From a virus (lineage: Duplodnaviria > Heunggongvirae > Uroviricota > Caudoviricetes): a DNA stretch of 47,489 nucleotides. The notes below the pieces were generated by a model. The model was not told the DNA's origin. It saw nothing but the letters and a program-made list of their open reading frames with translations, and did not search any database. Positions 17,084 through 18,127 of this stretch are shown here, in pieces (position 1 is the stretch's first letter; the number at the start of each line of letters is the position of its first letter). A program made the translations under genes and the position numbers. The stretch is from the IMG/VR virus record IMGVR_UViG_2671180547_000013, one strand, 5' to 3'.

Positions 17084-17160
17084 TTTCTTACGTATAAACT
17101 GCTTCAATTTTGCTATGCTTCGCAAAGCTGTATCGCGAGGCGGATTGCAGACATGGACAT

Positions 17161-17193
17161 CGTAAAAAAACCGCTTAATGCGGTTTTTTTACG
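17161..17193. terminator. Perfect palindromic intrinsic terminator (tR'-like, bidirectional)
   Basis: CGTAAAAAAACCGC-TTAAT-GCGGTTTTTTTACG; stem flanked by A-run and T-run; 78 nt after the Q-like stop. Confidence 0.8.
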
Positions 17194-17500
17194 TCAGGAA
17201 AGCAGGGGAGAATGCTGCTAGTTGGGCAACTGGTCTTTCTGCTCCAAATTATAACAGAGACCAGTTATAGTTTCGGTGCTGTGTTTTTTTTACAATATTG
17301 TGATAACACATTGCTGGCGGGAGTTTTGATATTTCTTGGCAGGGGCTGATGATGCGTTATCCTGATGTCGTCAACTCATATAAAATGAGATGAGAGATCA
17401 TTGCAGGGTGGTTTGTAATTCGCTGTTTAGCGGGACAATATGTTGTCTGATACAAGACACCCGACGCCTCAGATTACTATAATAAAGACGAAGCATCCTT

Positions 17501-17527
17501 TGTATTGACCAACCGCCTGTTTAGGCG
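17501..17527 (+). terminator. Second intrinsic terminator-like hairpin
   Basis: AACCGCC-TGTTTAG-GCGGTT followed by CTTTTTGGG. Confidence 0.5.
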
Positions 17528-18127
17528 GTTCTTTTTGGGCTGGTTTATTGTATGCCAAATGATTATTAAAAAGGTTGTGTTAATAACAAGATCCGAAATA
17601 ATATGCCTGCATATTTTTATCTTGCTTATATTCTGCATATTGTGCATAGCAGGCTCATCCCTGCAATCAAAACTGTATGATGAGTATTTTTTGTTTTCCT
17701 TTTTTCCAGTCATCTGATGATGACCTGCTTCTTTTTAATCCGGATCGACATCAGTTTTTTAAGATAATTCCTGCGAGTTATATGCATAAATGCCACAAAC
17801 TCCGCATTTTATGTGGTTGGGAGTTGCCGGGCGCGCAGTGAGTTTGCTAAGAAAACTCCTGCATGGTGAATCCCCCTGTGCGGTGGGGTGATACCATTAA
17901 CCTTTTCTGTCGCCGACAGGTATCACGAACATTTTGTTCACCGGGAGGCACCCGGCACCATGCACTTCAATAGATTCTCTCCACATTATGGATATTCTTT
18001 CAGAATATCCCACGCAGACTTTGTGTAAATGTTAACAAATGTGCGTTTTATTTGATCTGATTCGCTGTTTGAGCGTCCAAAACAACGGTATATATAATCC
18101 TTTACTATATGACATATGTGAGGAAAA

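Follow-up and report, generated by a model that had tools for sequence, protein, structure and literature searches.

What is encoded by a stretch of prophage DNA that genome annotation leaves blank? The question is raised by the 1,044-bp interval at positions 17084–18127 of the sequence analysed here (IMG/VR record IMGVR_UViG_2671180547_000013, 47,489 nucleotides, hereafter the window), which lies between a gene for a Q-like antiterminator and a gene with a TolA C-terminal domain. The window is a Rac-type lambdoid prophage of Escherichia coli and carries at 1557–1735 the RalA antitoxin RNA (RF02694, 225 bits), a Rac-type marker. At least 80% of the length of the interval is present in 446 of 5,426 complete E. 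coli genomes (~8%), with 99.3–99.9% identity in the sampled rows of these carriers, and RefSeq has no annotated feature within it in any listed genome row. E. coli SE11 is one natural lysogen in which the region is identical. A literature search on the late region of Rac/LT-II prophages gave no usable description. The interval is probably the untranslated leader of the late operon of this prophage, built of separable non-coding modules.

In the arrangement proposed, a sigma-70 late promoter (PR′) at the stop codon of the Q-like gene would start the late transcript, and a second −10-like element (17111–17119) would hold the sigma-containing RNA polymerase in a promoter-proximal pause, the place where Q would load. 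Without Q, transcripts would end at a palindrome at 17161–17193 (tR′) and give an RNA of ~76 nt; with a Q of the DUF1133/AntQ type, the polymerase would become terminator-resistant and pass tR′ and all later terminators, and read-through would reach the tolA-like genes, the lysis genes and beyond. Further downstream, a long hairpin (17283–17384) and a small terminator unit (17454–17536) would form a module that follows a prophage tRNA cluster in relatives and stands without tRNAs in the window, and an element of the STnc100/PasD family (17831–18017) would precede a tolA-like moron equipped with its own promoter-like site.

The late promoter was delineated by comparison. The window was compared with 33 loci from other genomes, in which the protein identity to its Q-like gene ranges from 38 to 99%, and an anchored promoter alignment was made from loci of ~52–97% protein identity, representing about a dozen genera. 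The pattern common to the lineages is TTGnnn, 17 nt, TGnT[TA]nAAT, 5 nt, TGnTAn[AG]CT. In the window, the predicted −35 hexamer (TTGATT, 17080–17085, plus strand) overlaps the stop codon, and a TTGnnn 17 nt before the −10 is found in every aligned lineage. The predicted extended −10 (TGcTTCAAT, 17100–17108) is kept in Escherichia, Citrobacter, Enterobacter, Klebsiella, Buttiauxella, Kluyvera and other genera. The candidate sigma-dependent pause element, again an extended −10-like sequence (TGcTATGCT, 17111–17119), comes next and is found as TAn[AG]CT, 5 nt past the first hexamer, in all lineages of the anchored alignment; the corresponding sequence of Rac-SA53 is TATCTT-5-TAAGAT. In 192-aa relatives the pattern falls within the 3′-terminal part of the gene, and in the E. 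coli 180-aa lineage it comes after the stop; it is thus conserved irrespective of coding.

In phage lambda, a −10-like hexamer at +1 to +6 of PR′ (AACGAT) induces the sigma-dependent pause at which Q loads. By this parallel in layout, the start of transcription is predicted at ~A17115, which would give an RNA of ~76 nt. The conserved order of Q gene, promoter, second −10 and terminator is accordingly read, from sequence, as a predicted lambda-style cassette of PR′, sigma-dependent pause and tR′.

The palindrome that would serve as tR′ consists of arms 17161–17174 (CGTAAAAAAACCGC) and 17180–17193 (GCGGTTTTTTTACG), which form 14 pairs with 100% complementarity around a 5-nt loop, exactly the perfect 33-nt terminator described in an earlier sequence-only reading of this DNA. 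We estimate the expected number of perfect, short-loop 14-nt inverted repeats in 47 kb at ~0.001. With A7 on one side and T7 on the other the terminator is bidirectional, and it was missed by a consensus terminator scan because the T-run pairs with the A-run inside the stem. The features of an intrinsic terminator (a G+C-containing stem, a short loop and a 3′ T-run) are present in 17161–17193 and in a second hairpin at 17511–17536, and marginally in a third at 17709–17735. In a set of 81 closely related loci, conservation extends over the ~60 nt that follow the stop codon, and the sequence beyond is unrelated; at least five different intrinsic terminators (that of the window and at least four others) are found there at the same distance. 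A terminator 42–113 nt after the stop is present in ~26 of the 28 full-length loci from other genomes. In loci L104 and L111, two intrinsic terminators stand back to back 50–110 nt after the DUF1133 stop, straight after the promoter block.

The leader RNA predicted from these elements extends over 17115–17190 on the plus strand (~76 nt), with a 5′ hairpin (17116–17142), a variable middle and the tR′ hairpin, and with its 3′ end predicted in the T-run at 17184–17190. The calculated fold of 17116–17200 has an energy of −30.6 kcal/mol (z −4.5). The leader is conserved to about +27 and is then free to vary. The sequence-only reading had suggested a late leader RNA similar to lambda 6S, which is well supported for ~17115–17190 by the promoter, pause and terminator architecture conserved in the DUF1133/AntQ family and by the RNA IsrK at the homologous position. 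Membership of the leader in the isrK family itself (RF01394) was considered and rejected, with a score of 21.6 bits (E 0.13, 17117–17190) against a gathering score of 50. A search of plasmids with the leader as query gave no match. In a search of a phage collection, matches were confined to three parts of the interval: its initial ~60 nt, the core of STnc100 and the segment before the tolA-like gene; the hairpin module had no match in that collection.

Two 184-aa relatives, L091 from E. coli and L095 from Salmonella, carry IsrK at the leader position (75.6 and 67.1 bits, above the Rfam cut-off). The promoter of this lineage has a −35 (TTGACT) that overlaps the stop codon and a −10 of TATATT, 7 nt after which lies the first base of the isrK model. 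IsrK of Gifsy-1 (77 nt) has its own promoter just 3′ of antQ and ends at a Rho-independent terminator that is partly read through, and expressed AntQ of Gifsy-1 interferes with termination (Hershko-Shalev et al., PMC4825925). Sy et al. (PMC7547250) group IsrK, StxS and lambda 6S together as short RNAs made from late promoters that are subject to antitermination. By analogy of position, the leader RNA of the window is predicted to be a counterpart of these three RNAs, and not a member of the isrK family.

The window and IsrK have in common the genomic position and a Rho-independent terminator. A short RNA, a promoter whose −35 overlaps the AntQ/DUF1133 stop codon and read-through of the terminator are known for IsrK and predicted for the window. 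In contrast, the window is not homologous to IsrK in sequence beyond the terminator, has neither the orf45-anrP antirepressor operon nor a C4-like RNA downstream, and contains the second −10-like hexamer that the IsrK lineage lacks. As with StxS, the leader RNA is predicted to be a by-product of a constitutive PR′ terminated at tR′ in lysogens, and, as in the StxS class, the segment that separates the pause region from the terminator is free to change; StxS differs in being processed from a 258-nt PR′-tR′ transcript and in the Q family involved. The lambda cassette is matched in a Q-type gene, an intrinsic terminator within ~80 nt and lysis genes next on the same strand, and, as predicted from sequence, in a sigma-70 promoter directly after the Q gene and a −10-like hexamer where the transcript would start. 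The window differs in that its Q is a DUF1133 protein with a Q21-like predicted fold and marginal PF06530 similarity. Lambda 6S is 194 nt long, compared with ~76 nt for the leader of the window. In L091 and L095, IsrK is followed by a match to C4 antisense RNA (L091:3075-3276 and L095:3088-3268), and in L091 IsrK is overlapped by a match to the a1/b1 target of C4 RNA; on account of these matches, the isrK-orf45-anrP unit resembles the design of P1 immI (c4-icd-ant).

The gene on which this cassette would depend (16541–17083, plus strand) lies just outside the interval. Its product matches Pfam DUF1133 with 356 bits and PF06530, the Q21/Q933W family (bioRxiv 10.1101/651190), marginally with 26.1 bits at a cut-off of 26; a relative from Salmonella reaches 36.1 bits (E 7e-9) with PF06530. 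The best sequence match in the PDB is Q21, which is weak (E 0.27). A Foldseek search with an AlphaFold model returned Q21 structures as its top 10, with a probability of 1.00 and target-normalised TM scores of 0.60–0.73, and probabilities of at most 0.15 for all non-Q21 structures; the Q21-like predicted fold is thus a direct result of the comparison. Homologues are named "antiterminator", "antitermination protein Q" or "late gene regulator" in public sources, and a literature search for DUF1133 found no paper naming the family. In the near-identical locus L001 (99.6%), the gene order is DUF1367 (NinB-like), DUF1364, DUF1133, two TolA-C-terminal-domain genes, essD, rrrD, a spanin gene and trkG, with essD, rrrD and the spanin gene on the same strand beyond the terminator. 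The Q-like identity is supported by the Pfam matches, the weak match to Q21 in the PDB, the Q21-like fold and the order DUF1367-DUF1364-DUF1133 followed by lysis genes; judged by the modelled fold, the DUF1133 gene is a Q21-fold antiterminator of the Gifsy-1 AntQ type.

Downstream of tR′, the interval contains a conserved long irregular hairpin of 31 pairs (17283–17384, plus strand), defined by comparative pairing and a covariance model, which matches no Rfam family and is rich in G-U pairs. In an alignment of 12 sequences, 93.2% of the cells are paired, compared with 31–62% when the partners are slid, and covariation is directly observed in 21 double-change cells versus 8.7 in shuffles (none of 500 shuffles reached the observed number). 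The covariance model built from it (R1) scores 100.7 bits on the plus strand and 18 bits on the minus strand, and a search of 0.31 Mb of loci with this model found further copies, always downstream of DUF1133 or tRNA genes.

The hairpin is followed by a small unit consisting of a promoter-like site (AAGACA-18-TATAAT, 17454–17483, plus strand, 10 of 12 consensus matches) and the second intrinsic terminator (AACCGCCT-GTTT-AGGCGGTT, then CTTTTT, 17511–17536, plus strand). The stem (17511–17530) has 8 pairs, 5 of them G-C, and a loop of 4, and the fold of 17488–17540 has an energy of −16.2 kcal/mol (z −2.0). The sequence-only reading had placed this hairpin at 17501–17527; the terminator is real, and its position is corrected to 17511–17530 with the CTTTTT running to 17536. 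A terminator with a related stem (CCGCC...GGCGG) is found at the homologous place in L175, L006, L007 and L008. A −10-like hexamer (TATAAT in three lineages, TAAAAT and TTTAAT in the others) precedes the stem by ~25–32 nt in five lineages, the sequence between the two varies, and there is no conservation of the −35. When viral contigs were scanned for the pattern of this unit, only the same prophage type was returned, which added no diversity. The second terminator may close a very small transcription unit, end the trailer of a tRNA operon, or back up tR′; two terminators in series on one transcript, as the sequence-only reading had them, are plausible.

No tRNA or tmRNA was found in the whole window with ARAGORN and the Rfam tRNA model, whereas relatives carry 2–4 tRNAs at the corresponding place. 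In strain M6 (L175), the DUF1133 gene and the cassette are the same, four tRNA genes come next, and homologues of window 17317–18198 follow these; prophages with different Q genes have homologues of 17244–17414 right after their tRNA clusters. From M6 and these other tRNA-bearing prophages, the window looks like a tRNA-less version of a common arrangement. The region 17283–17536 may represent an undescribed structured-RNA family, with a long G-U-rich hairpin and then a ~45-nt terminator unit preceded by a −10-like hexamer, and may in Escherichia lambdoid prophages be part of the late transcript or of the tRNA transcript. Such a module might serve in processing by RNase III or in RNA stability, or might give rise to a very small RNA.

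The second RNA element of the interval is a member of the STnc100 family (RF02076), related to PasD and of a subtype linked to the tolA-like gene. It is located at 17831–18017 on the plus strand and matches the full model (1–206) with 86.6 bits (E 2e-18; gathering score 47), so that its membership in the Rfam family is directly observed. Of the two alternatives offered by the sequence-only reading for this interval, a leader RNA "and/or an sRNA", the second thus also has a counterpart in the DNA, although that reading had not located it. Covariance-model searches, suggested there as a check, gave STnc100 above its cut-off and isrK below it for the leader. The G+C content, described in the same reading as low, is 35–44% over most of the interval and rises to 50% in an island at 17800–17999, which is the STnc100 element.

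Among 16 STnc100 copies, 5 of the 8 pairs of the closing helix (GCAUGGUG/CACCAUGC) have undergone compensatory changes, and two internal hairpins are invariant around a variable middle. The core has the layout of a four-way junction with some resemblance to tRNA, in which the 8-bp closing helix stacks on a 5-bp hairpin. STnc100 is a known prophage small RNA family related to PasD, located between Q and the lysis genes or downstream of stx genes (bioRxiv 10.64898/2026.05.13.724894; PMC12370729). The copy in the window conforms to the family in matching the full model above the cut-off, in its invariant core hairpins and covarying closing helix, and in its place between the Q and lysis genes of a lambdoid prophage. 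It departs from the family in being a single copy, whereas L002, L005 and L008 have clusters or tandem arrays of four or five; in lacking the G+C-rich terminator; and in preceding a tolA-like gene, not an esterase or stx gene. The tandem arrays, of up to five copies, are located at L005:2202-3181, L008:3310-4425 and L002:4331-4793. These loci are from other lambdoid prophages; the four copies of L005 have a period of ~260 nt and lie upstream of the sialate esterase gene. Array copies usually have a G+C-rich terminator each, and their conserved spacers contain TTGCCT-17-TAAAAA.

The usual 3′ terminator of the family is GCCCCTC...GAGGGGC-T6. The window shares with L003 and L002:3436 an A+T-rich hairpin without a T-run at the 3′ end of STnc100; downstream of the element, an interrupted hairpin followed by UUUUAUUU (18012–18054, plus strand) is a possible terminator of this variant, weakly indicated by its fold. 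STnc100 sits where relatives carry tRNA genes and, given this position and the tRNA-like layout, it might be matured by tRNA-processing enzymes and not made from its own promoter. Taken jointly, the undescribed RNA family at 17283–17536 and the possible maturation of STnc100 by tRNA-processing enzymes form a tentative proposal in which we place little confidence.

Several observations weigh against reading the interval as a modular late leader. The PR′ candidate has 8 of 12 consensus matches, below the cut-off of a simple scan, and is not listed there; promoter prediction, another check suggested with the sequence-only reading, thus gave the conserved pattern through the cross-genus alignment and not through the scan. 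The IsrK lineage lacks the second −10-like hexamer, which is thus not found throughout the family. The AlphaFold model of the Q-like protein has moderate confidence (pLDDT 64.5), and a profile-profile comparison (hhalign) of DUF1133 with a bona fide PF06530 Q protein was not significant, the profile being shallow. The long hairpin of the window, folded alone, has an energy of −23.4 kcal/mol (z −1.0) and is no more stable than shuffled sequences, and the 12 hairpin sequences come from only five or six lineages. At the 3′ end of STnc100, GGATATTCT-TTC-AGAATATCC without a T-run replaces the usual terminator, and no clear promoter for the element was found, the best candidate being a weak TTGCCG-18-TAAGAA at 17823–17852. 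The start site, the pausing, Q-dependent read-through and any trans-acting roles of the RNAs are predicted.

The alternative that survives best is that everything past the first terminator is a decaying recombination scar left by the loss of a tRNA cluster and other morons, in which the hairpin, the second and third terminators and the STnc100 copy are inherited relics without a present role. The interval is indeed a mosaic whose segments have different relatives. The four tRNAs of M6 are missing between tR′ and the hairpin module, and a stretch of ~60 nt found in L175 and L008 is missing near 17750. The canonical terminator is gone from the STnc100 copy, and the hairpin and the third terminator are thermodynamically marginal. 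The third terminator-like hairpin (GTCATC-TGAT-GATGAC, then CTGCTTCTTTTT, 17709–17735, plus strand), which was found by the terminator scan, has an energy of −7.8 kcal/mol (z −1.3) in the window, and its homologue in L008 is stronger, with a 9-pair stem and then a T-run. However, the near identity of the full interval in the sampled carrier genomes does not fit a decaying scar, the pairing of the hairpin is kept by compensatory changes across lineages with unrelated flanks, five lineages retain a terminator at the homologous place although the sequence has changed, and STnc100 scores well above its gathering score. A scar is consequently an unlikely account of this region. The suggestion of the sequence-only reading that the interval could be the remnant of a larger moron holds as far as the missing four-tRNA cluster is concerned; what remains consists of conserved non-coding modules and contains no decayed protein gene.

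Still less probable is that the palindrome at 17161–17193 is simply the terminator of the early-right operon, which also stops convergent transcription from the minus strand, with no late promoter before it. The palindrome lies 78 nt after the stop of the Q-like gene and is bidirectional, the proposed PR′ is weak by consensus, and a perfect extended −10 on the minus strand (TGTTATAAT, 17256–17248) points toward it. This element is located inside an inverted repeat (17249–17271, ATTATAAC-N8-GTTATAGT) that is kept in L006 and L007, where the extended −10 is largely kept as well. It is a candidate promoter for an RNA of ~85–90 nt ending at the same bidirectional terminator, and the minus-strand fold of 17246–17155 has an energy of −32.5 kcal/mol (z −5.8), mostly due to the terminator. 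A promoter for an antisense small RNA is argued against by the tRNA-bearing relatives, in which its transcript would run antisense into the tRNA genes. An early terminator alone leaves unexplained the spacing-exact conservation of −35, −10 and second −10 across genera, even within coding sequence, as well as the promoter-driven IsrK at the homologous Gifsy-1-type position (PMC4825925). The early-operon role and the tR′ role of the palindrome are not mutually exclusive.

The absence of any convincing protein gene before 18128, noted in the sequence-only reading, is borne out by the lack of RefSeq annotation, of Pfam matches and of conserved open reading frames (ORFs); its statement that the ORFs lack starts is incorrect, in that an ATG is present at 17713 (minus strand) and a TTG at 17505 (plus strand). 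One or more small protein genes hidden in a hydrophobic 45-aa ORF (17212–17349), a 70-aa ORF (17505–17717, plus strand) or a 78-aa ORF (17477–17713, minus strand) are very improbable. In their favour, start codons exist, and substitutions relative to L175 are mildly over-represented at one codon phase (17:9:8). Against them, Pfam gave no match above the cut-off for any of the four ORFs tested among the many small ones, the NCBI pipeline calls none of them in any listed genome, and comparison of 17455–17750 with L175 shows several indels that are mostly not multiples of three, also within 17505–17717. The homologous ORFs of L002 differ in length and in where they end, the TTG start lies just upstream of the second terminator stem, and the 45-aa ORF shares sequence with the 5′ arm of the covarying hairpin. 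The small ORFs were therefore rejected as genes.

Read as an untranslated late leader, a stretch left blank in every sampled carrier genome would be densely functional. The overall arrangement is ordinary for a prophage late operon, though unannotated, and none of these results overturns current understanding. The proposal made in the sequence-only reading holds for the most part. What is new is an explicit layout of promoter and pause element in the DUF1133 family, a leader RNA of a new sequence type, and an uncatalogued module of hairpin and terminator. The DUF1133/AntQ group of Q-like antiterminators is thereby assigned a concrete, predicted late promoter, pause element and terminator, and the class of short RNAs at antiterminated promoters (StxS, IsrK) gains one more predicted member, whose variable middle is the kind of sequence where new regulatory RNAs evolve. 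A small RNA of the STnc100/PasD type is now placed before TolA-domain morons, and the hairpin module is flagged as lying outside any RNA family.

The 3′ end of the interval is associated with the gene that follows. A promoter-like site (TTGAGC-18-TATAAT, 18069–18098, plus strand, 10 of 12 consensus matches) precedes the TolA-C-terminal-domain lipoprotein gene at 18128–18556. The segment 17937–18127 is 99.5–100% identical in sampled genomes whose upstream sequence differs, and thus travels with the tolA-like gene. Two paralogous lipoprotein-like genes with TolA C-terminal domains, at 18128–18556 (Pfam, 82.6 bits) and 18707–19102 (54.6 bits), are morons between the late leader and the holin gene. 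Their products might, as an idea of our own, be periplasmic TolA decoys against colicins or filamentous phages.

Three further features were noted. A palindrome (AATATGC-CT-GCATATT) within window 17597–17618 is conserved in L175 and L008; as an RNA it is not stable (−2.3 kcal/mol), and it may therefore be a protein-binding site. Strain SK6988 has, immediately upstream of its homologue of window 17317–18127, the anti-adapter gene iraM on the other strand (L002:2282-2608). Finally, comparison of L001 with window 11774–12865 showed that L001 has an extra Q gene of the PF06530 type (612-1130, 115.9 bits) after its DUF977 gene, in place of which the window has, after its own DUF977 gene, a 363-aa ORF with a weak HEPN/RES-like match.

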